The position numbers and the translations under genes were made by a program. Source: Acidothermales bacterium (lineage in GTDB: Bacteria; Actinomycetota; Actinomycetes; Streptosporangiales; WHST01). Taken from it: 28,473 nucleotides of DNA. The stretch spans positions 1 through 28,473 of the forward strand of contig JAFMQP010000001.1 of NCBI GenBank assembly GCA_017354575.1, written 5' to 3'. Within the stretch, counting starts at the first letter, position 1, and the number at the start of each line of letters is the position of its first letter. This document shows positions 19,070 to 28,473 of the stretch, one piece after another. The notes under the pieces were generated by a model, which was given only the letters and a program-made list of their open reading frames with translations, had not been told where the DNA came from and made no database searches.

Positions 19070-20401
19070 GTGACCTCAGCGGACCCGGCCGGTTCGACCC
19101 CGGCCGACGACGGCGTGGTCTCACGCCAGGTGTGGAAATGGACGATACTCGCCGCGATGGCGTCGTACCTCGACGCCGGCTCCATCGTGGCCCTGGGCTC
19201 CGGCCTCGCACTCTTCCAGAGCACGTACCACCTCAGCGGCAGCGCCGTCGGCGCGCTCGCGGCGATCGGCCCGAACGCCATCGGGTGTGCCGTCGGATCG
19301 TTCATCGGCGGTCGGCTCGGTGACAAGCTCGGCAGGAAACGCATCTACAAGTACGACCTGCTCGTCTACGCGGTCGGCGCGTTGCTGATCGCGCTGTCGT
19401 TCAACGCGCCGACGCTGTTCGTCGGCACCTTCGTCGTCGGCGTCGCCGTCGGTGCGGACGTGCCCACGTCGCTCGCACTCGTCGGCGAGTTCGCACCCGC
19501 CAAGGCACGCGGCAAGCTGCTCGGCTTCACCCAGATCGCCTGGGGTACCGGGCCCGTCGTCGTCCTCGTGCTCGCGGCGATCCTGTCCGGCGCCGGCCTC
19601 GGGCTGCTCGGCACGCGCATCGTGTTCCTCCACCTGGTGGTCGTCGCACTGGTCACCTGGGCGCTGCGGCAGGGCATGAGCGAGTCGATCCGCTGGCGGA
19701 ACGCCATGCGTGCCACCACGTTGACGGCGCGCGGCCTGCGGACGCTGCTCAGCGGCCCCAACCTGGCGGGGCTCGGGTACACGGCGGTCATCTACGTGTT
19801 CTGGGGTCTCGCGGCCGGCACGGCCGGCATCTTCACCCCGTTCATGATCGAGACGCTGCACGCCGGCGGGCCGGTCACCGGCCTGATGTTCTCCGCCGCG
19901 GGCTTCCTCATCGGGATCATCGCGAACGTGCTCATCTTCATGAAGTACGCCGACCGCGGGCACGGCGCACGCAAGGCGATGTGGGGCATGGGCGCGATCA
20001 TGCAGATCGTGGCATACGGGATGTTCATCGTGCTCCCGTTCACCGTGCCGGTCATCATCGTCAACATCGTGCTCTTCGGCATCGGCGCGTCGCTGGCCGG
20101 CGAGCAGATGTACAAGACGATCAGCCAGGAGGTGTTCCCGACCGTCGTGCGCGGCACGGCGCAGGGCTTCACGTTCGGCGTCGCGCGCGTTCTGCTCGGC
20201 ATCTGGAGCTTCTTCGTGCCGACGCTCGCGCACGCGGGCTTCACGGTCGTGGGCGGGCTGCTCGCGTTCTTCCTGCTCGTCAGCGGCGTCGTGGGCTACA
20301 TCTTCATGCCGAACACGGCCGGTAAGTCGCTCGAGCAGATCGAGTCCGAACGCGCCGAACAGCCGGCCGTCAGTCCCGACCTGGCCCCGGGAGCCGGATG
20401 A
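19070..20401 (+). CDS. MFS sugar/polyol transporter (IolF/RhaY-like), 443 aa
   Basis: AAMASYLDAGSIVA, motif A GGRLGDKLGRKRIY, GADVPTSLALVGEFAP, EVFPTVVRGTAQG and NTAGKSLEQIE; 12 hydrophobic segments. RBS GAGGAG. Confidence 0.9.
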   Translation: MTSADPAGSTPADDGVVSRQVWKWTILAAMASYLDAGSIVALGSGLALFQSTYHLSGSAVGALAAIGPNAIGCAVGSFIGGRLGDKLGRKRIYKYDLLVYAVGALLIALSFNAPTLFVGTFVVGVAVGADVPTSLALVGEFAPAKARGKLLGFTQIAWGTGPVVVLVLAAILSGAGLGLLGTRIVFLHLVVVALVTWALRQGMSESIRWRNAMRATTLTARGLRTLLSGPNLAGLGYTAVIYVFWGLAAGTAGIFTPFMIETLHAGGPVTGLMFSAAGFLIGIIANVLIFMKYADRGHGARKAMWGMGAIMQIVAYGMFIVLPFTVPVIIVNIVLFGIGASLAGEQMYKTISQEVFPTVVRGTAQGFTFGVARVLLGIWSFFVPTLAHAGFTVVGGLLAFFLLVSGVVGYIFMPNTAGKSLEQIESERAEQPAVSPDLAPGAG

Positions 20402-23400
20402 CGGGTACGGACGCGCTCCTTGCCCGGTTCACCAAGCCGGGCAAGGAGTTCGGGCCGCTGCCGCTCTGGTGGTGGAGCGGCGCGGAGGTCACCCGCGACC
20501 GGTTGCGCCGGCAGATGGAACAGCTGTCGGCGCAGGGCGTCCACCAGGCGGTCGTGATGTGCCTCGCGCCCACGGGACCGCTGTACGGGTCGCTCGCGGA
20601 CGACCCGCCGTTCCTCAGCCCGCAGTGGGTCGAGCTGCTCGACGGCGCGTGCGCCGACGCCGAGCAGCTCGGCTTCACGCTCTGGATGTACGACCAGATC
20701 GGGTTCTCCGGCGCGAACTTCCAGGGTCGGCTCACCGCAGAGCACCCGGAGTACGCGGGCCTCGCGCTGTTCCGCGACACCGACGGCGTCGTCCGCAACC
20801 GGGTCAGCGGCTTCGACTACTTCGGCATCGACGCCTGCGCGGCGCTGCTCGACCAGGTGCACGGCGAGCTCGAACGCCAGGTGGGGCAACGGTTCGGGCG
20901 CGCCATCGGCGGCTTCTTCCAGGACGAGCTACCGGCGATGCCGACATGGGGGTACGACTTCGCTGAGACGTTCGCCGACCACTACGGCTACGAGCTGGAG
21001 CCGCGGCTGGAGTCGCTGTTCTCCGGCTCCGGCGATGATGACGTACGCGTCCGCCGCGACTACCACGAGCACCGTGCGACGCTCGCCCGCCGCGCGTTCT
21101 TCGACCCGCTCGACGCGTGGTTCGCGAAGCACGAGATGATCTGCGGCTTCGACCAGCGGTCACCGGCGCGCGAGGGCGACCCGGTCGGCGGCGTGGAGAT
21201 CTACGGCGACTATCTGGCCACCCACAAGGGCTTCGGCGCACCCGGCAGCGACCACTGGGGCGACCCGAAGGTGCACAGCTCGCTCGCGCACGCGTACGGC
21301 CGGCCGCGCACCTGGATCGAGGCGTTCCACTCGTCCGGCTGGGGCGGCACGCTCGAGGAGACCTACGACTGGCTAGCGCCGTTCCTGCGCCGCGGCGCGA
21401 CGCTCTACGACCCGCACGCGGTCTACTACAGCACGGCCGGCGGCTGGTGGGAGTGGGCGCCGCCGTCGACGTGCTGGCGCCAGCCGTACTGGCCGTCGTA
21501 CCACGTGTTCGCGGACGCCGTCGCCCGGCTCTGTTCGGTGCTGACGGCGGGCGCGCACGTGTGCGACACGGTGCTCCTGTCCCCCACGGCGACCGCGCAG
21601 GCGTACACGACCCTCGACGGCGCACAGCCGGAGGCTGATCGCGCATCGCGTTGCTACCACAGGCTGAACGGCGTCAGCGCGTGGTACGCCGAACGCCGCG
21701 GCGTGCTCGAACGCGCGGGCGTCGACCACGACGTGCTCGACGAGGCGACCCTCGCGGACGCCGTCGTCGAGGACGGTACGTTGCGCGTCGCCGACGAGAC
21801 GTACCGCACCGTCGTCGTGCCCGATGCCCATGCGCTGCACGTGTCCACGGCAGGTTTGCTCGCCCGGTTCGTCGAGTCCGGCGGGCGCGTGGTCTGCGTC
21901 GGCGATGCGCCGGCGCGGTTCCTCGGCGGCGATCCCAGCGACGCCGCCGCGTTCAGCGACGCGGTCGCGCGCGGCGACGTCGTCGTCGTCCCGACACCCG
22001 ACGACGTGCCGGACGCCGTCGCCCACGGACCCGTGCGCGTCACTGCGGACGCGCCGTTCCTGTTGCGCCGCAACGGGAACGCGTACGTGCTGATGCTCAC
22101 CTCACACGACGACGATACCGGTACGGCCGCACCGATCATGGACTTCGGCGGCGACGCGCTGGACGTCGAGGCGTTCTCCTGGCAGGACTACTGGGGCCAG
22201 CTGCACGACACCGGTTACGCGTTCCGGCCGACCGGCGGACGGACGGCGCACGTGCGGGTCGAGGGACTGCCGGCACGGGCGCAGCGCTGGGCCCCCGGCA
22301 CGGGACAGCGCGTCGACGTCCAGGTGAGCGAGGCCGCCGACGGCTCGCTCGGCTTCGACGTCCCGTTCGCGGACGGGCCGATCACACTGGTCGTGCTCGC
22401 GGACGACCTGCCGGTGACGACCGCCCACGCACTCGGCGAGGTGGTCGAAACCGTTCCCGTGGACGGGCCGTGGCTGGGACTGGCCTCGTCCACGCTGGAC
22501 AACGGCTACGGCGACCTCGCCGCACCCGATCGCGACGGCGTGCTGCCGATCGAGGTGTGGCGCTTCGAGCACGCGACGGGCGGCGACGAATGGCGCCCGG
22601 TCACCGCCACCTACGGCCCGTTCGCGGAGGTACGCGACCCGGACGGCACATGGCGTACCGCGGAGTGGTCCCTGTCGCGCGGCATCCGCAACGACCCGAT
22701 GCACCGGGAAGCGTTGGGGCCCAAGGGATACGTGCCCGAAGAGTTCCTCGACTGGCGCGACGTAGAGGCCGGTGGGCAGGTGGCGGTGCGGTGCCACCTC
22801 ACGCTGCCGTCGCGCGACGGCCTGCACGTCGCGGTCGGTGCCGACGCCGGCCGGCGTGTGCTCGTCGACGGCGTCGAGCTGCCGGTCGAGGCCGCGGGAT
22901 ACCAGTCGTTCAGCGCGATTCCGCGCGAGCTCACCGGCCGTGGCGTCGCATTGGACGTCGAGCTCACCGCCGAACGCGACGGGCCGGTGCGCGCGTCGTT
23001 CGCGGTCGTCACCGACCCGACGTCGTATCGCCGGCCCGAGTGGCTGACCAGCGGCACCACCGGCCATGAGGGACGCGAGGTCGACTTCACCCGCACGTTC
23101 CCGCTCACCGAGGTGCCGGACGACGCAGCCGTCCAGGTGGCGAGCGACGGTGCGTGCAGGATCCTGGTCAACGGCGTGGAGGTCGGGCGGCAGGGCGACT
23201 TCAGCCCATACCCAGGGCACCGCGAGGTGCGCGTGCACCCGTACCAGGTCGCCGAGCACCTCCGTGTCGGCGACAACGAGATCGTGCTGCGCGCCGTGGA
23301 CGCCGGCGCGCAGCCCACCGCGGTCGCGCTCGACTCGCCCGGTCTGGGCCTGTGTACGGACGCAAGCTGGAATGCCAGTGGCGGCAACGCCTCCGGCACA

Positions 23401-24147
23401 CCGACACTACGCCGCCAACACGCGCGTGACCCGCGGTTCGTCTGCGCCCGGCCGCGTCCGCATCCGCTGCCCGGCGCGGGCTGGCTCGAGCCGGACCGGC
23501 CGACCGACGGCGTCGTCGGCGTCGTCCCGGACGTCGCGCCCGGCGGCGAACGCACCGAACGGCTGCGCTTCCCCGCGCCGCTCGGCACGGTCGCGCTGCA
23601 CGTGCCCACGTCGCTCGACGCCGCCGTCCTCGTCGACGGCCGCGAGCACGCCCCGGACGGTGGACGGGTGACGTTCGCCGAGCCGCTGCCCGCGGCGACC
23701 CCTGTCACCCTGCGGTTCCGCGCCGTCGGCGGCAGGCGCGGCGGCGCGTTGCTCGACGGCCCGGTCGAGGTCGAGGTCGCGGAGACCGGGACCCGGCTCG
23801 CGTCGTGGGAGGAGCTCGGCCTGCGCGCGCTCGGCGGCGAGCTGCGCTACCGCGCCACCGTGGACGTCCGGCCGCCGGACGGCACACGCACCGTGCTCGA
23901 CCTCGGCGACGTGCGCGGCACCGCCGACGTCGTCGTCAACGGCGCGCTCGTCGGCCGGCTCGTCTGGTCGCCGTGGTGCGCCGAGGTGACCGACGCGCTG
24001 CGCCCCGGCGAGAACGAGATCGAGGTCGTCGTCCGCGGCACCCTCGCCGGCTACCTCGACGACGCCTCACCGACCGCGGCGGTGGCGAAGGGCCAGGTGC
24101 GGACGGGATTGTTCGGCGCCGTGCGACTGGTCCATCATCGGAAGTGA
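20398..24147 (+). CDS. Large cytoplasmic glycoside hydrolase, GH106-like (alpha-L-rhamnosidase-type) catalytic region with multiple beta-sandwich domains, 1249 aa
   Basis: PLPLWWWSG, GFTLWMYDQIGFSG, GGFFQDELP, RRDY, EAFHSSGWG and QPYW. C-terminal GH2_N-like LDLGDVRGTADVVVNG..VG...WSPW..EVTDALRPGENEIEVVV. No signal peptide. ATGA overlap with the MFS gene. Confidence 0.75.
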   Translation: MTGTDALLARFTKPGKEFGPLPLWWWSGAEVTRDRLRRQMEQLSAQGVHQAVVMCLAPTGPLYGSLADDPPFLSPQWVELLDGACADAEQLGFTLWMYDQIGFSGANFQGRLTAEHPEYAGLALFRDTDGVVRNRVSGFDYFGIDACAALLDQVHGELERQVGQRFGRAIGGFFQDELPAMPTWGYDFAETFADHYGYELEPRLESLFSGSGDDDVRVRRDYHEHRATLARRAFFDPLDAWFAKHEMICGFDQRSPAREGDPVGGVEIYGDYLATHKGFGAPGSDHWGDPKVHSSLAHAYGRPRTWIEAFHSSGWGGTLEETYDWLAPFLRRGATLYDPHAVYYSTAGGWWEWAPPSTCWRQPYWPSYHVFADAVARLCSVLTAGAHVCDTVLLSPTATAQAYTTLDGAQPEADRASRCYHRLNGVSAWYAERRGVLERAGVDHDVLDEATLADAVVEDGTLRVADETYRTVVVPDAHALHVSTAGLLARFVESGGRVVCVGDAPARFLGGDPSDAAAFSDAVARGDVVVVPTPDDVPDAVAHGPVRVTADAPFLLRRNGNAYVLMLTSHDDDTGTAAPIMDFGGDALDVEAFSWQDYWGQLHDTGYAFRPTGGRTAHVRVEGLPARAQRWAPGTGQRVDVQVSEAADGSLGFDVPFADGPITLVVLADDLPVTTAHALGEVVETVPVDGPWLGLASSTLDNGYGDLAAPDRDGVLPIEVWRFEHATGGDEWRPVTATYGPFAEVRDPDGTWRTAEWSLSRGIRNDPMHREALGPKGYVPEEFLDWRDVEAGGQVAVRCHLTLPSRDGLHVAVGADAGRRVLVDGVELPVEAAGYQSFSAIPRELTGRGVALDVELTAERDGPVRASFAVVTDPTSYRRPEWLTSGTTGHEGREVDFTRTFPLTEVPDDAAVQVASDGACRILVNGVEVGRQGDFSPYPGHREVRVHPYQVAEHLRVGDNEIVLRAVDAGAQPTAVALDSPGLGLCTDASWNASGGNASGTPTLRRQHARDPRFVCARPRPHPLPGAGWLEPDRPTDGVVGVVPDVAPGGERTERLRFPAPLGTVALHVPTSLDAAVLVDGREHAPDGGRVTFAEPLPAATPVTLRFRAVGGRRGGALLDGPVEVEVAETGTRLASWEELGLRALGGELRYRATVDVRPPDGTRTVLDLGDVRGTADVVVNGALVGRLVWSPWCAEVTDALRPGENEIEVVVRGTLAGYLDDASPTAAVAKGQVRTGLFGAVRLVHHRK

Positions 24148-24165: not shown

Positions 24166-25629
24166 ATGACGGCCACACGATCTGCCCCCGACATCGGCTC
24201 GCTGTTGCAGCGCAAGGTGCCCAGGCACACGAAGATCGGGCTGGTCGCCGGCGGGCTGGGGGCGTACTGGCCGCAGTTCCCCGACCTGCTCCCCCAGCTA
24301 CGGCGTTCCGCCGACCGCGTGTCCGAACGGATGCGGGAGCTCGACTGCGAGGTCGTGGACGTCGGGTTCATCTCGGACGCGCAGGAGGGCGCGGCCGCCG
24401 CGGAACGCCTGCGCGCGGCCGGCTGCGACCTCATCGTCGCGTTCCTCGCCACGTACATGACCGCGACGATGCTCCTGCCGATCGCGCAACGCAACGGTGC
24501 GCCCGTGCTGCTGCTCAACCTGCAGCCGAGCGAGGCGATGGACCACGCGTCCTTCGACACCGGCGCGTGGCTCGCGTACTGCGGCGCGTGCCCGCTGCCG
24601 GAGATGGTGAACGCGTTCCGCCGCTGCGGCATCGAGACGCGCAGCGTCAGCGGCCACCTCGAGGAGCCGTCGGCGTGGGCGAAGATCGAGCGCTGGGTGC
24701 GCGCGGCCGGCATCCGCGGCGCGTTGCGGCACGGCAGGCACGGCCTGCTCGGGCACCTCTACCCGGGCATGCTGGACGTGTCGACCGACCTCACGCTCGT
24801 ACCGGCGCAGTTCGGCGGGCACATGGAGGTGCTGGAGATCGACGACGTGCGCGTGCGCGTCGAGCAGGTGAGCGACGCCGACGTCGACGCCCGCGTCGCA
24901 CTCGCGCGGGACGTCTTCACCGTGGCCGACAGCGTCGTGGAGGACGATCTGCGTTGGGCGGCAAGGGTTTCCGTCGCCCTCGACCGTCTGGTCGACGACT
25001 TCGAGCTGGACAGCCTGGCGTACTACCACCGCGGACTGGACGGCGAGACGCACGAGCGCGTCGGCGCCGGGCTGATCCTCGGCGCGTCGCTGCTCACCGC
25101 GCGCGGCATCCCGGCGGCGGGCGAGTACGAGCTGCGCACGTCGCTCGCGATGCTGATCCTCGACCGGCTCGGCGCCGGCGGCTCGTTCACCGAGTTCCAG
25201 GCGCTCAACTTCCGCGACGACGTGGTGGAGATGGGCCACGACGGCCCCGCGCACCTGGCCATCAGCGACGGGCGCCCGACGCTGCGCGGGCTCGGCGTCT
25301 ACCACGGCAAGCGCGGCTGGGGCGTGTCCGTCGAGCTCGACGTCAGGCACGGCCCGGTCACCACGTTCGGCATCGGCCAGGAGCGCGACGGACGGTTCCG
25401 GTTCGTGGTGTCGGAGGGCACCGTGGTGAGCGGACCGCTGCTGCAGATCGGCAACACCACCTCGCGCGTGACGTTCGGCCGTCACCCGGGCGAGTGGACC
25501 GACGAGTGGAGCGTCTCCGGCGTCGGCCACCACTGGGCGCTCGGCACCGGCCACCGCGCCGCCGAGCTCGCCGTCCTCGGCGAGCTGTGCGGCGTCGAGG
25601 TCGTCACCGTCCCCGGCGTGAGCACGTAG
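24166..25629 (+). CDS. L-fucose/L-arabinose isomerase family protein, 487 aa
   Basis: YWPQFPDL, GHLYPGMLDVSTD, SLAYYHRG, AGEYELRTS.AMLI, GGSFTEF, EMGHDGPAH, GNTTSRV.F and GVGHHWALGTGH. RBS GGAGGA. Confidence 0.88.
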   Translation: MTATRSAPDIGSLLQRKVPRHTKIGLVAGGLGAYWPQFPDLLPQLRRSADRVSERMRELDCEVVDVGFISDAQEGAAAAERLRAAGCDLIVAFLATYMTATMLLPIAQRNGAPVLLLNLQPSEAMDHASFDTGAWLAYCGACPLPEMVNAFRRCGIETRSVSGHLEEPSAWAKIERWVRAAGIRGALRHGRHGLLGHLYPGMLDVSTDLTLVPAQFGGHMEVLEIDDVRVRVEQVSDADVDARVALARDVFTVADSVVEDDLRWAARVSVALDRLVDDFELDSLAYYHRGLDGETHERVGAGLILGASLLTARGIPAAGEYELRTSLAMLILDRLGAGGSFTEFQALNFRDDVVEMGHDGPAHLAISDGRPTLRGLGVYHGKRGWGVSVELDVRHGPVTTFGIGQERDGRFRFVVSEGTVVSGPLLQIGNTTSRVTFGRHPGEWTDEWSVSGVGHHWALGTGHRAAELAVLGELCGVEVVTVPGVST

Positions 25630-25654
25630 GGCGCACGCTCACCGGCGGCGGCTG

Positions 25655-26386
25655 TCAGCGCTCCCGCTGCCTGCCGCGGTCCGCGGGACGCTCGGCGCGT
25701 GCGCCGCGTGCTGCCGCCCGGCCCCGGCCCAGTCTCGTCGACCGCGGGCGCGCGACGGACCGTTCCGCGTGAACGGTCCTCGTCAGGAGTGCCTCGGCCG
25801 CCTTCGCCGGAGACGCCTGCACCGCCTCCTCGCGGTCGAAGCGCTCGGCGGCGCGGCGGACGGCCGCCGCCTCCCGCGGACGCTGGTGCGCGAACTCCGC
25901 GACGCTCTCCTTGTCGGCGAGGTCGACCAACCGGAACCGGGGATTCCTGCGGGCCATCGCCTGCGCACGGTCGTAGACGTCGTGCTGCATCCTCGCGCCG
26001 TCCTTGACCACCCAGACGACGTCCCAGCCCTGACGCAGCATCGCGGCGTCCTTGCGCAGCTGCAGCAACCGATGCTCGCGATTCCCCCCGCCGACCTTGA
26101 ACTCCCACGCCAGGAAGGCGCGGCGGTTGCCGATGTCCTGGAATCGCTTGCCGAACCGGGTCGGCTGGTACCGCTCCTTCCGCCAGCCGTCGCGTTCCCG
26201 GTAGCCGAGCTCGTCGTAGGCGAGGTCGCGGAACCGGTTGCCCCGGCGTTGCAGCTCCTCGAAGTATGCGACCCGCCCGAGCCAGTCGGCACGGTCCCTC
26301 GGCGTCTCGCCGCGGGCGAGCTTGTGCGTGCGGTACGTTCGATAGCGCCGAACGACTTCCCGTGGAGACCACCCGCGCGGCGTCAT
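25655..26386 (-). CDS. Hypothetical protein with a predicted PD-(D/E)xK restriction-endonuclease fold (toxin-tip-like) and an Arg-rich tail, 243 aa
   Basis: GWRKE...GKRFQD (D at 26135-26137)...WEFK (26096-26104)...QLRKD..ML.QGWDVVWVV. ATG 26386 is 10 nt after the upstream stop. Confidence 0.65.
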   Translation of the reverse strand: MTPRGWSPREVVRRYRTYRTHKLARGETPRDRADWLGRVAYFEELQRRGNRFRDLAYDELGYRERDGWRKERYQPTRFGKRFQDIGNRRAFLAWEFKVGGGNREHRLLQLRKDAAMLRQGWDVVWVVKDGARMQHDVYDRAQAMARRNPRFRLVDLADKESVAEFAHQRPREAAAVRRAAERFDREEAVQASPAKAAEALLTRTVHAERSVARPRSTRLGRGRAAARGARAERPADRGRQRER

Positions 26387-26396
26387 CGTCAGGCGC

Positions 26397-26939
26397 TCAG
26401 GCCAGCGCCTCGTCGTCCTGCATCTGCTGCCAGACCGGCGGTTCCGGGCGTCCCGCACCGACCCAGGCGTCGTGGTCCTCCCGCTGGAACCGGTGGACGG
26501 CGGACCACTCCCCGCCGGTACGGCGCTGCACCGCCATCGTCAGCGCCCCGCCGACGTCGAAGTACTCCGGCGAGTAGGGCAGCGCCACCGCAGGCACCAG
26601 CCCGGTCGCACCGAGGTCGACGTACACCCAGGCGCCCTCGAACCGACGCACGAGCAGCTCGCCCAGGTACCGGCGGAACCCGTCGATGACATCCGCGCCG
26701 GCCTGCGCCGTCTCGGGATCCGCGGAGTCGGCGTCAGGAAACCGTTCCAGCGCCGCGGCCTCGGCGTGCCGAAGCCCTTCCTCCGACCACGGGTCGGCGG
26801 GCATGTCGGGGACGACGCGGTCGAAGAAGCCCGCCAGCGCGGCGTCCATGCCGGCCAGCCAGTCCCGCCACTCCGGGCGCTGCTGGAACGGCGCGATGCG
26901 GCGCTGCTCCTGCTCGTACGCCTCGGCGTAGTCGACCAC
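26397..26939 (-). CDS. Hypothetical acidic, Trp-rich protein, immunity/antitoxin-like, 180 aa
   Basis: Strong RBS GAGGAGGG (26952-26945) 5 nt before GTG 26939, so the start is moved from 27008. Motifs W..WL..M...L..FF...VP.MP.DPW, RYLGE..VRRFEGAW and RRTG..W. Confidence 0.75.
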   Translation of the reverse strand: MVDYAEAYEQEQRRIAPFQQRPEWRDWLAGMDAALAGFFDRVVPDMPADPWSEEGLRHAEAAALERFPDADSADPETAQAGADVIDGFRRYLGELLVRRFEGAWVYVDLGATGLVPAVALPYSPEYFDVGGALTMAVQRRTGGEWSAVHRFQREDHDAWVGAGRPEPPVWQQMQDDEALA

Positions 26940-26977
26940 GGGAACCCTCCTCGGCGCCTGAACCTCGGGTACCGGCA

Positions 26978-26986
26978 ACGTTAACG
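26978..26986 (-). promoter_or_regulatory. Putative -10 box (TAACGT) overlapped by the palindrome CGTTAACG, upstream of the two-gene operon
   Basis: ACGTTA at 26978-26983 on plus reads TAACGT on minus. CGTTAACG spans 26979-26986. No good -35 was seen. Confidence 0.35.
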
Positions 26987-27066
26987 GGCACGGCTCAGGA
27001 GCCGACACGCTCGAACGTGAACAGGTCGGAAACGGAGGGCGTCCCGGCGTGACCGGCGGCCCGCGG

Positions 27067-28473
27067 TCATGTCCCTGTCGGCCGCACCCCCGGGATCACG
27101 AACGTGGTGATGGACTGCGCCTTCAGCGTCGTACGGTAGGTGCCGCCCTGCCGCGCCTCGGCGGGCAGCTCGGCGAGGTTCTCTGTGCTCGACGTACGCC
27201 GCCGCAGCACGTCACCCGACGACGGCGTGAACCCGCTCAGGTCGAACGTGACGTCGCGGTTCGCGGTGCCGAGCTCGGTGTAGACGACGACCAACTGCCG
27301 GCGCCTGGCGTCGTACGCGGCGAACGCGTTCGCGTCGCCGACCCGGATCACGGTCGCGCCCGGCCGTACGTACTTCACGTAGTTGCCGTAGCCGTAGTAC
27401 TGCTTCGCGACGTAGAAGTCCTCCTGGCCCGGGGTGTAAGTCGCGTGCACGATGCCCCAGCAGGTGTTGCCGTCCCGGTTCGCCTCGATGCTCTCGATCG
27501 CGTTCCAGATGTTCCACGCCTCGGCCTGCAGGACGTTCAGGTCGAGCAGCATCGTCTTGGACAGGTTGAGCGCGTTGCTGATGTGCTGCGGCTGGTACCC
27601 GGCGTCGCCGGCCGTGCCGAACTCCGACATCCACAGCTTCGCCGGCAGCGCGCGTACGGCGTCGCGCAGGCCGGTACGTTCCTGGTTCCAGTACGAGTGC
27701 GTGTTCACCTGGCCGAGCAGCCGGGCCTCGTCACCGTAACTGGTGACCGAGTCGAGCCCGGCGCTCGCACCCGGCTCCTCGGGCATCGCGAGCCGGGTGT
27801 GGGCCGACAGCCCCTTGGCGTCCATCTTCCTGCGCATCGCGTCCAGCACCTGGGCCTGCATCGGCAACGAGAAGTGGCAACCCTCCTGCGTGCCGTTCGC
27901 CACCCACCAGTCAGCGATCGGCTCGTTGATCGGTGACAGCGAGCCGAACCTCGTTCCCCACCTGCGCGCGAACAGCACGGCGACGTCGGTGACATAGTCG
28001 GCGAAGTCGTCGACGTGTTCCGGCAGCAGGTTGTCGCCGCTGTCGGCCGCGCCACTCACGCAGCCGCTCCGCGTCCACCAGTAGTGCGGGCTGCAGACGA
28101 ACGCCTCGGTGCGTGTCGCCTCGCGCGCCAGCGCCTGCGCGAGCACCCAGCGCTGGCCGGCGTCCCGGGTGTAGTCCCACGTGCCCGGCTGCTCGGGCCA
28201 GAACGACGGGATGCTCGCACCCAGCCGCATGTGGTTGTGCGCCGGGTTCTCGGTGGCGCCGATGTTGTACCGCGCGATGTCGATGCCGAGACCGTCGGAG
28301 CCGAACAGCAGGTCGACGATCTGCGTGCGCTTCTCGACGTCCTGCCAGCCGCCGATCACGTTGGCGCCCCAGGACAGCGCGGTGCCCCAGCCCTCCATCG
28401 TCTGGTACCGCGTGCCGGGATCGACGGCGATGGGCGCGTCGGCCGCGCCCGCCCGGCGCGGCCCCGCCGCGAC
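27067..28473 (-). CDS. GH30 glycoside hydrolase (endo-beta-1,6-galactanase-like), 5' end outside the window
   Basis: IAVDP..RYQTMEGWGTALSWGAN, GLGIDIARYNIGA, acid/base SPINEP, QEGCHF, nucleophile LWMSEFG and KQYYGYGNYVKYVRPG. The frame is open to 28473 and shows the end of a signal-peptide-like Ala-rich segment. Confidence 0.85.
   Translation of the reverse strand, partial: VAAGPRRAGAADAPIAVDPGTRYQTMEGWGTALSWGANVIGGWQDVEKRTQIVDLLFGSDGLGIDIARYNIGATENPAHNHMRLGASIPSFWPEQPGTWDYTRDAGQRWVLAQALAREATRTEAFVCSPHYWWTRSGCVSGAADSGDNLLPEHVDDFADYVTDVAVLFARRWGTRFGSLSPINEPIADWWVANGTQEGCHFSLPMQAQVLDAMRRKMDAKGLSAHTRLAMPEEPGASAGLDSVTSYGDEARLLGQVNTHSYWNQERTGLRDAVRALPAKLWMSEFGTAGDAGYQPQHISNALNLSKTMLLDLNVLQAEAWNIWNAIESIEANRDGNTCWGIVHATYTPGQEDFYVAKQYYGYGNYVKYVRPGATVIRVGDANAFAAYDARRRQLVVVYTELGTANRDVTFDLSGFTPSSGDVLRRRTSSTENLAELPAEARQGGTYRTTLKAQSITTFVIPGVRPTGT

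Follow-up and report, generated by a model that had tools for sequence, protein, structure and literature searches.

In the polymorphic toxin systems described by Zhang et al. 2012 (PMC3482391), a toxin domain occupies the C-terminus of a protein that carries a trafficking domain, and the gene for the matching immunity protein follows downstream. The toxins catalogued there include the restriction endonuclease (REase) families Tox-REase-1 to -10, listed together with their immunity families, and those delivered by type VII secretion are built on WXG100 or LXG domains (for example EsaD-EsaG of Staphylococcus aureus, PMC9616950). The metal-dependent nuclease domains of polymorphic toxins are apparently absent from classical toxin-antitoxin (TA) systems (Zhang et al. 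2012, PMC3482391). Here we describe a pair of adjacent minus-strand genes that shares features with both kinds of system. It lies in a stretch of DNA, hereafter the window, that is the entire 28.5-kb contig JAFMQP010000001.1 (28,473 nucleotides) of a 77%-complete metagenome-assembled genome of an Acidothermales bacterium, recovered from a termite-mound metagenome. Gene 1 (26939..26397) encodes a protein of 180 amino acids (aa) and gene 2 (26386..25655) one of 243 aa. The two products are very probably a cognate protein inhibitor and a PD-(D/E)xK nuclease toxin, respectively, co-expressed with the inhibitor first. The explanation that we favor overall, at a probability of about 0.5, is that of an inhibited nuclease cassette acting inside the cell that produces it.

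A nuclease toxin accompanied by an immunity protein is a well-known kind of system; what is new here is the family pair, its strict two-state architecture and a conserved C-terminal motif. No papers on this nuclease family, on the immunity family or on the inverted, tailed architecture were found in open-access text. The locus connects, through homology of both partners, two life-styles of a single nuclease-inhibitor pair, one as a secreted type VII weapon and the other as a self-contained, inhibitor-first cassette. Two families without a database model are hereby defined, together with their confidently modeled structures, the catalytic residues and an interface as predicted.

The nuclease domain and its putative inhibitor

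When 1.84 billion cluster representatives were searched exhaustively with phmmer, 46 relatives of gene 2 came up. In an alignment of 37 relatives, residues G49, D84, E95 and K97 are invariant, while R81, G99, Q109, D113, W125 and F151 are nearly so, and the motifs RFQDIG, WEFK, QLRKD and GWDVVWV are all found in gene 2 itself. An AlphaFold2 (AF2) model of residues 1-168 (25883..26386, minus strand), which was built on the family alignment and has a predicted local distance difference test score (pLDDT) of 97, displays the order alpha-alpha-beta-beta-beta-alpha-beta-alpha-beta, that is, two N-terminal helices followed by the core. Its elements include a helix at residues 32-59, strands at 68-76, 79-87 and 92-97, a helix at 103-118 and a strand at 122-127. 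D84 is located on the second of these strands and E95-x-K97 on the third, and the helix after them bears Q109 and D113; as modeled, this arrangement is that of a classical PD-(D/E)xK enzyme. The two N-terminal helices also belong to the domain in the fused toxins described below.

Exhaustive structure comparison with the PDB returned mostly REase-fold nucleases, with Z-scores from 8.8 to 5.3; the matches comprise SfsA (8.8), AF1548 (8.4), BstEII (8.3), BsoBI (8.0) and, lower down, Can2, Vsr and NucS. The TseT-TsiT complex (PA3907-PA3908), an effector-immunity pair of a type VI secretion system, matches the gene 2 model as well (9oz0, Z 6.3; 7dym, Z 5.7). When the AlphaFold DB clusters were searched with Foldseek, the first named matches after the family itself were Tox-REase-5 (1.8e-7), a PAAR-like DUF4150 toxin and Tox-REase-7 (1e-5, with a template modeling score, TM, of 0.72), and the protein language model behind the ESM Atlas likewise placed Tox-REase-5 and -7 as the nearest named clusters. 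The Foldseek search of the PDB produced no significant match for gene 2 (best E-value 0.03), the top rows being REase-fold proteins, and sequence-profile searches of the PDB gave nothing significant.

At the sequence level, the Pfam models of Tox-REase-7 (PF15649) and Tox-REase-5 (PF15648) matched neither gene 2 nor any of the 37 alignment members at E ≤ 1. Aligning the family profile with a thin, two-sequence Tox-REase-7 alignment drawn from genomes by hhalign gave a probability of 0.04, with the D, ExK and Q columns in register, and the published Tox-REase-7 signature (G..., ...D, ExK, Q; PMC3482391) is similar to what is seen in the REase fold of gene 2. In contrast to Tox-REase-5 and -7, the gene 2 domain is larger (about 165 aa), has two extra N-terminal helices and is paired with another immunity family, and the likeness to them is structural only. 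On the evidence of the models, the gene 2 family is a REase-fold toxin domain that lacks a database model, is nearest to Tox-REase-5 and -7 and is not a sequence-level member of either. These results bear out the initial annotation of the window, which was made from the letters alone and had proposed a nuclease of the toxin-tip kind with a restriction-endonuclease fold: that fold is predicted, D84, E95 and K97 are invariant in the 37 relatives, and among the relatives are C-terminal tips of WXG100_2 toxins. The same annotation took the pair to be unnamed in databases, and indeed neither protein was matched by a model from Pfam, NCBIfam, PADLOC or PHROGs, nor did the alignment members produce anything meaningful; with PADLOC-DB 2.0, the 37 members gave single matches at chance level (DrmC 0.002, Cas4 0.005).

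The product of gene 1 is acidic, with an isoelectric point (pI) of 4.4, a net charge of -17 and seven tryptophans, and in this respect complements the basic gene 2 protein (pI 11.4), as the proposed pairing would have it. It is homologous to the proteins encoded downstream of WXG100_2-fused toxins (BLASTP against P0055, 4e-30, and P0054, 1e-11). Because the downstream genes of fused toxins are homologous to gene 1, its identity can be considered settled: judged by sequence kinship, gene 1 is a member of the immunity family cognate to the gene 2 nuclease, and its first description as an immunity-like partner was apt.

The AF2 model of gene 1 (pLDDT 95) consists of a compact helical domain and a beta-hairpin. 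Its best match in the PDB is BT_1490 (3hlz, Z 7.7; next best 4.6), and the fold also resembles that of a SUKH-4 immunity protein (4.6e-5, TM 0.63) and of several DUF3806 proteins; clusters near gene 1 in the ESM Atlas are DUF3806, YwmA, DUF6278 and Imm11. The likeness to DUF3806, SUKH-4 and BT_1490 is middling and derives from predicted models, and no sequence-level match of gene 1 to the Imm, SUKH-4 or DUF3806 families of Pfam was obtained. A search of open-access text found no literature linking DUF3806 to immunity. One entry of the AlphaFold DB cluster, A0A367YWG6, is 384 aa long and 48% identical to gene 1 across residues 6-180; the additional residues could stem from a genuine fusion or, the genome being GC-rich, from a start codon called too far upstream.

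A complex of the two proteins was predicted with a score of 0.91 in three runs, compared with 0.15 for the best control, so that the confident complex expected of a true pair was obtained. That mark was attained for 51 of 78 solved complexes and for 2 of 108 mismatched pairs. On the nuclease, the predicted contacts with gene 1 involve residues 67-79, 88-91 and 104-120, which correspond to the hairpins and to the helix with Q109, K112 and D113 beside the catalytic residues.

Two architectures, the C-terminal tail and distribution

The relatives of gene 2 come in two forms. In 11 of the 46, the domain sits at the extreme C-terminus of proteins of 207-555 aa (phmmer E-values for these tips, 6e-12 to 7e-4), and six of those 11 (P0021, P0025, P0029, P0039, P0042 and P0051) carry a WXG100_2 domain (PF25547) upstream of it. 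These fused forms have N-terminal extensions of 51-399 aa and C-terminal extensions of 0-9 aa, and the immunity gene lies immediately downstream (loci L008, L009 and L012); at L008 and L009, the gene order is WXG100, WXG100, WXG100_2-toxin and then a gene of 170-173 aa. The stand-alone form, to which the window belongs, has no N-terminal extension (22 aa in P0016) but a C-terminal one of 32-433 aa, rich in Arg, Ala, Glu and Gln, and its immunity gene is immediately upstream. This was seen at all 11 stand-alone loci examined (the window, L001, L002, L003, L004, L005, L010, L013, L017, L018 and L020), so that gene order follows architecture in 14 of 14 loci. Stand-alone proteins make up 30 of 42 members, and the homologues are accordingly not confined to the C-termini of long toxins. 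In six stand-alone loci including the window, the two genes overlap by as much as 14 nt or lie up to 18 nt apart.

The reversed order and the lack of a delivery domain, both pointed out when the pair was first described, are thus characteristic of the stand-alone form. In the window, the first residue of the protein is already part of the nuclease domain, behind which 75 more residues follow; gene 2 contains no WXG100, WXG100_2 or LXG domain, and neither WXG100 nor any other Pfam family of type VII secretion (T7SS) was detected among the neighbors of L001, L004, L005 and L010. The models PF06013 (WXG100) and PF25547 (WXG100_2) had no match in the 77%-complete genome. That genome does encode a type VII EccC ATPase (G000 contig C161:5965-9357; TIGR03924, 709 bits, above the cut-off).

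Compared with the type VII polymorphic toxins (PMC3482391; EsaD-EsaG, PMC9616950), the window resembles them in that its nuclease is homologous to the tips of WXG100_2 proteins, in whose cassettes two WXG100 genes come before the toxin and a gene 1 homologue after it, and in having, like them, a dedicated small acidic neutralizer. It departs from them in lacking the N-terminal stalk and the WXG100 partners, in the upstream position of the immunity gene and in a tail and terminal motif that the tips lack. With respect to polymorphic toxin systems in general (Zhang et al. 2012, PMC3482391), both the toxin domain and the immunity protein of the window have homologues in the systems of bona fide secreted toxins, whereas the C-terminal placement of the toxin on a trafficking domain and the downstream immunity gene are missing. 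The two families have diverged together, as indicated by a Mantel r of 0.61 for the pairwise identities at ten loci, with 11 of 5000 permutations as high. Beside the fused cassette at L009 (L009:3576-7318) there are a phage-integrase fragment, a NaeI-like fragment and an AAA_21/AAA_15 ATPase gene with its partner, which suggests a mobile or defense-island context for the fused form.

The tail of the window protein (residues 169-243 and the stop codon, 25655..25882, minus strand) is Arg/Ala-rich, with a net charge of +11, 26% Arg and 25% Ala, and ends in DRGRQRER-COOH (25658..25681), which conforms to the family consensus (D/E)RG(x)xR(D/E)R. The initial annotation had noticed an Arg/Ala tail of about 80 aa ending in GRQRER; the tail is there, but what looked like an oddity of one copy proves to be a module found throughout the family, whose terminal motif is conserved. 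A tail of 32-433 aa, widely variable in length and sequence, is present in all stand-alone members and absent from the fused ones. RG or GR occurs within the last 14 residues of 26 of the 30 stand-alone tails; in random internal 14-residue windows, drawn 2000 times, the count averages 5.1 and never exceeds 12. Examples of tail ends are ERGLSRER, PRGLSRER, SRGISRDR, DRGRSRDR, DRGRQRER (the window), QRGHERSR and ARGHDLER, and RGG(T) often precedes the terminal motif. Since the motif is present in several deep clades of the nuclease tree, it is an old one. Within this genome, gene 2 alone among 2975 coding-like open reading frames (ORFs) has such an ending, about 0.8 being expected by chance, and because of this uniqueness we rejected the idea that the motif is a general sorting tag of the genome. 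Possible docking targets of the motif are nucleic acid, a partner protein and an export machinery.

The family is rare, and its distribution is patchy, as had been surmised; clusters in the ESM Atlas suggest several hundred members in all. In a sample of 401 genomes of the class, strong matches to gene 2 were found in two of the 400 genomes other than that of the window, with three more giving weak partial matches, and relatives of gene 1 are confined to these two strongly matching genomes and that of the window, so that the two genes co-occur. Searches of three congeners and two other relatives did not reveal the pair. Two copies each are present in Luteipulveratus (L004 and L005) and in G077 (L013 and L017), and a narrower alignment search led to four Nocardia loci. 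Orphan homologues of gene 1 also exist in Nocardia (L019:5845-6525 and L021:6001-6459), with no nuclease domain detected in the fetched flanks, which for L021 extend only about 300 nt downstream. The orphan at L019 adjoins another ORF and a gene similar to those of nonribosomal peptide synthetases.

A genome of the same genus, G401, retains the two genes that flank the pair in the window, an isomerase gene (91% identity) and a glycoside hydrolase family 30 (GH30) gene (89%), and there too they converge. Because the homology between the window and this genome breaks off at 25629 and resumes at 27079 (tblastn and blastn against contig 53 of G401), the pair is an accessory cassette in a variable slot (25630..27078) of an otherwise conserved synteny. 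The corresponding slot on contig 53 (L037:4350-4730) is occupied by 380 bp of unrelated GC-rich sequence.

Possible roles and evolutionary direction

We propose the following mechanism for the stand-alone cassette. Transcription starting upstream of gene 1 would cover both genes, the inhibitor being made first and the nuclease being translationally coupled 10 nt behind it. Gene 2 would be a metal-dependent PD-(D/E)xK nuclease toxin, and gene 1 would bind the nuclease core one-to-one, on the face with the beta-hairpins and the Q109/K112/D113 helix that flank D84, E95 and K97. Inside the producer, the inhibitor would keep the nuclease inactive, perhaps until some trigger intervenes, and the tail may serve as an address or regulatory handle. 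The pair itself would be a horizontally mobile two-gene cassette. A TA-like or abortive-infection role inside the cell has, in our estimate, a chance slightly short of even; it is favored by the absence of a delivery domain and of partner genes, the inhibitor-first coupling, the multiple copies and the scattered insertion sites.

The initial annotation had seen in the pair a TA or anti-phage module. The inhibitor-first order agrees with this, whereas a labile antitoxin of type II does not: gene 1 is compact, with a pLDDT of 95. The likeness to type II TA modules extends to the two-gene operon with tight or overlapping spacing, the predicted direct binding of inhibitor and toxin, the multiple copies in some genomes, the patchy distribution and the insertion among unrelated housekeeping genes. 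The differences are that the inhibitor has no helix-turn-helix (HTH), ribbon-helix-helix (RHH) or AbrB domain (no match to these families was found in gene 1) and no disordered region, that the toxin bears a long low-complexity tail and that a conserved operator is missing. The family is a candidate counter-example to the apparent absence of metal-dependent nucleases from classical TA systems. EsaD, the type VII toxin named above, is not known to be a PD-(D/E)xK enzyme.

Several observations weigh against an intracellular cassette of this type. Toxicity, neutralization and defense are all predictions. The catalytic residues are absent from the predicted interface contacts, and gene 1 lacks the DNA-binding domain and disordered region of a labile, autoregulating type II antitoxin. 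No integrase, repeat, mobile-element or defense gene flanks the window copy, and neither defense-island nor mobile-element genes flank L001, L004 and L010, so that the location in defense islands that might have been expected was not seen. The genome encodes the EccC ATPase of a type VII system. Finally, a simple TA model does not explain the conserved tail and terminal motif, which could be an export signal.

This last point leads to a different account, in which gene 2 is an exported interbacterial toxin of reversed polarity, with the toxin at its N-terminus and the tail and RG motif as a signal for export or targeting by type VII or another route, while gene 1 protects the producer and its kin. 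In its favor, all stand-alone members have the tail and 26 of 30 the terminal RG motif, and docking signals typically take the form of a conserved terminal peptide behind a spacer that varies; functionally, T7SS toxins are the closest relatives, the EccC gene is at hand, and the Nocardia orphans of gene 1 (L019 and L021) are what one would see if cells resist an incoming toxin. However, the search of the incomplete genome detected neither a WXG100 nor a WXG100_2 gene, WXG100 genes are likewise missing beside L001, L004, L005 and L010, and gene 2 has no hydrophobic N-terminal signal. Known actinobacterial T7SS signals (YxxxD/E, WXG) are unlike the tail motif, which, being unique to gene 2 among the 2975 ORFs, is not a shared sorting tag, and immunity-first coupling would be unusual in a secreted toxin cassette. 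We regard export as unlikely, although its claim is better than that of the two accounts that follow.

Both of these appear very improbable. The pair might be an orphan or displaced toxin tip, held as a silent spare for recombination into a full-length toxin or kept for its immunity gene only. The domain is indeed common to polymorphic toxins, and such systems are known for retaining cassettes that stand alone (Zhang et al. 2012, PMC3482391). Yet in 30 members the nuclease has an ATG of its own at the first residue of the domain, its catalytic residues are intact, it possesses an additional conserved tail that tips lack, the order is immunity-toxin and not toxin-immunity, and there is neither a full-length toxin gene or homologous junction nearby nor a WXG100_2 protein found in the genome; we rejected the silent tip on these grounds. 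A housekeeping or repair nuclease of the Vsr or DUF559 type with a regulatory partner, outside any conflict system, was rejected as well. Its attraction is that the fold is also like those of Vsr, DUF559, NucS and SfsA, but strong matches turned up in just three of the 401 sampled genomes and none in the three congeners and two other relatives, the pair lies in a variable slot, and by sequence the nuclease is most closely related to toxin tips accompanied by immunity genes.

The preferred reading, that of an inhibited nuclease acting inside the producer, leaves the direction of evolution to be considered. A maximum-likelihood tree was computed from 42 nuclease domains, a sample of cluster representatives at 50% identity, and rooted at the midpoint in the absence of an alignable outgroup. 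The fused forms constitute one group and require a single change (support of 85 in the Shimodaira-Hasegawa-like approximate likelihood ratio test, SH-aLRT), while the stand-alone forms, which are paraphyletic when the tree is rooted at its midpoint, are spread over several well-supported clades that branch deeply. The initial annotation supposed that a toxin tip and its immunity gene had been domesticated into a TA system. The kinship with tips and their immunity genes holds, but the direction does not follow from it: under midpoint rooting, the reverse is at least as likely. We give an even chance to the possibility that the stand-alone inhibitor-nuclease module is ancestral and that a single capture onto a WXG100_2 stalk turned the inhibitor into an immunity gene. 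The single fused group, the deep paraphyletic stand-alone clades and the majority held by stand-alone members all speak for it; against it are a root that is not fixed, midpoint rooting being unreliable when rates are unequal, the moderate support for the fused group and the restriction of the tree to cluster representatives.

The stand-alone, immunity-first, tailed modules could represent an undescribed class of actinobacterial conflict system, in which the terminal (D/E)RGxxR(D/E)R behind a variable spacer would act as an address or switch, directed to nucleic acid, to a trigger protein or to an unrecognized export route, and which would have given rise to the type VII tip instead of descending from one; this proposal is speculative, and we consider it rather doubtful. 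The single transition on the tree makes the family a clean system for studying the passage of toxin domains from conflict between bacteria to conflict within the cell or the reverse, and the conserved C-terminal peptide is a concrete starting point for experiments.

Reading frames, upstream region and neighboring genes

The bicistron is as it was first described. Gene 1 opens with GTG and has its stop codon at 26397-26399, gene 2 opens with ATG on the same (minus) strand after a spacing of 10 nt, and a strong Shine-Dalgarno-like sequence, GAGGAGGG (26945..26952, minus strand), is read 5 nt ahead of the GTG. The start codons of both genes match the N-termini of their homologues (MSEYVEAYEREKRR and MAPRGWTPEQEE in L010). 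Third-position GC is 92% in gene 1 and 90% in the domain of gene 2, like that of the flanking genes, and 87% in frame in the tail. Since contigs from the source sample and from a second study span the region, the first covering 25302-27405 with zero differences and the other 25743-27723, the arrangement of the pair is not an assembly chimera. The region is contained in metagenomic DNA runs from termite-mound and soil samples; the runs shown to contain it are metagenomic DNA only, with no RNA run among them.

Upstream of gene 1 (26978..26986, minus strand), the hexamer TAACGT (26978-26983) and the palindrome CGTTAACG (26979-26986) that had been reported are both present, but neither goes beyond what chance would yield, and they are not conserved in homologous loci. 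TANNNT-like hexamers, like the putative -10 box, are seen by eye at a similar upstream distance in several homologous loci; a scan for consensus promoters and terminators was empty. The suggestion that the palindrome is an autoregulatory operator could not be upheld: an 8-bp palindrome within about 130 bp is close to chance expectation, a comparison of the window with five homologous pairs revealed no conserved palindrome, and gene 1 has no DNA-binding fold. In L010 (JGI metagenome 3300079521), which holds the closest homologous pair, there is an inverted repeat with 15-bp arms (GCACTTCGCGCTAGT...ACTAGCGCGAAGTGC) and, after it, TAACTAGCGCG for a third time, some 115-165 nt upstream of the gene 1 homologue (L010:9-60). 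This element, which has no counterpart in the window, could serve as an operator or as a terminator.

The placement between genes of sugar catabolism, as originally stated, is consistent with the sugar-related nature of the flanking genes. The upstream neighbor, on the same strand as the pair, is the GH30 hydrolase gene, and an arabinose-isomerase-like gene converges on the pair from the opposite side; farther away are a 1249-aa glycosidase and a sugar transporter of the major facilitator superfamily. The 1249-aa protein (20398-24147, plus strand) has weak, sub-threshold similarity to GH106 rhamnosidase and to the galactose-binding domain of GH2, and the isomerase-like protein (487 aa; 24166-25629, plus strand) has a sub-threshold match to the arabinose-isomerase C-terminal domain alone. 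These two proteins, which are kept together in relatives, may be poorly characterized enzymes of sugar catabolism. A hairpin with a 6-bp stem (TGACCG-N8-CGGTCA; 27050-27069, minus strand) begins at the stop codon of the GH30 gene and has no T-run; it may separate transcription of that gene from the pair, or else the pair may be read through from GH30.

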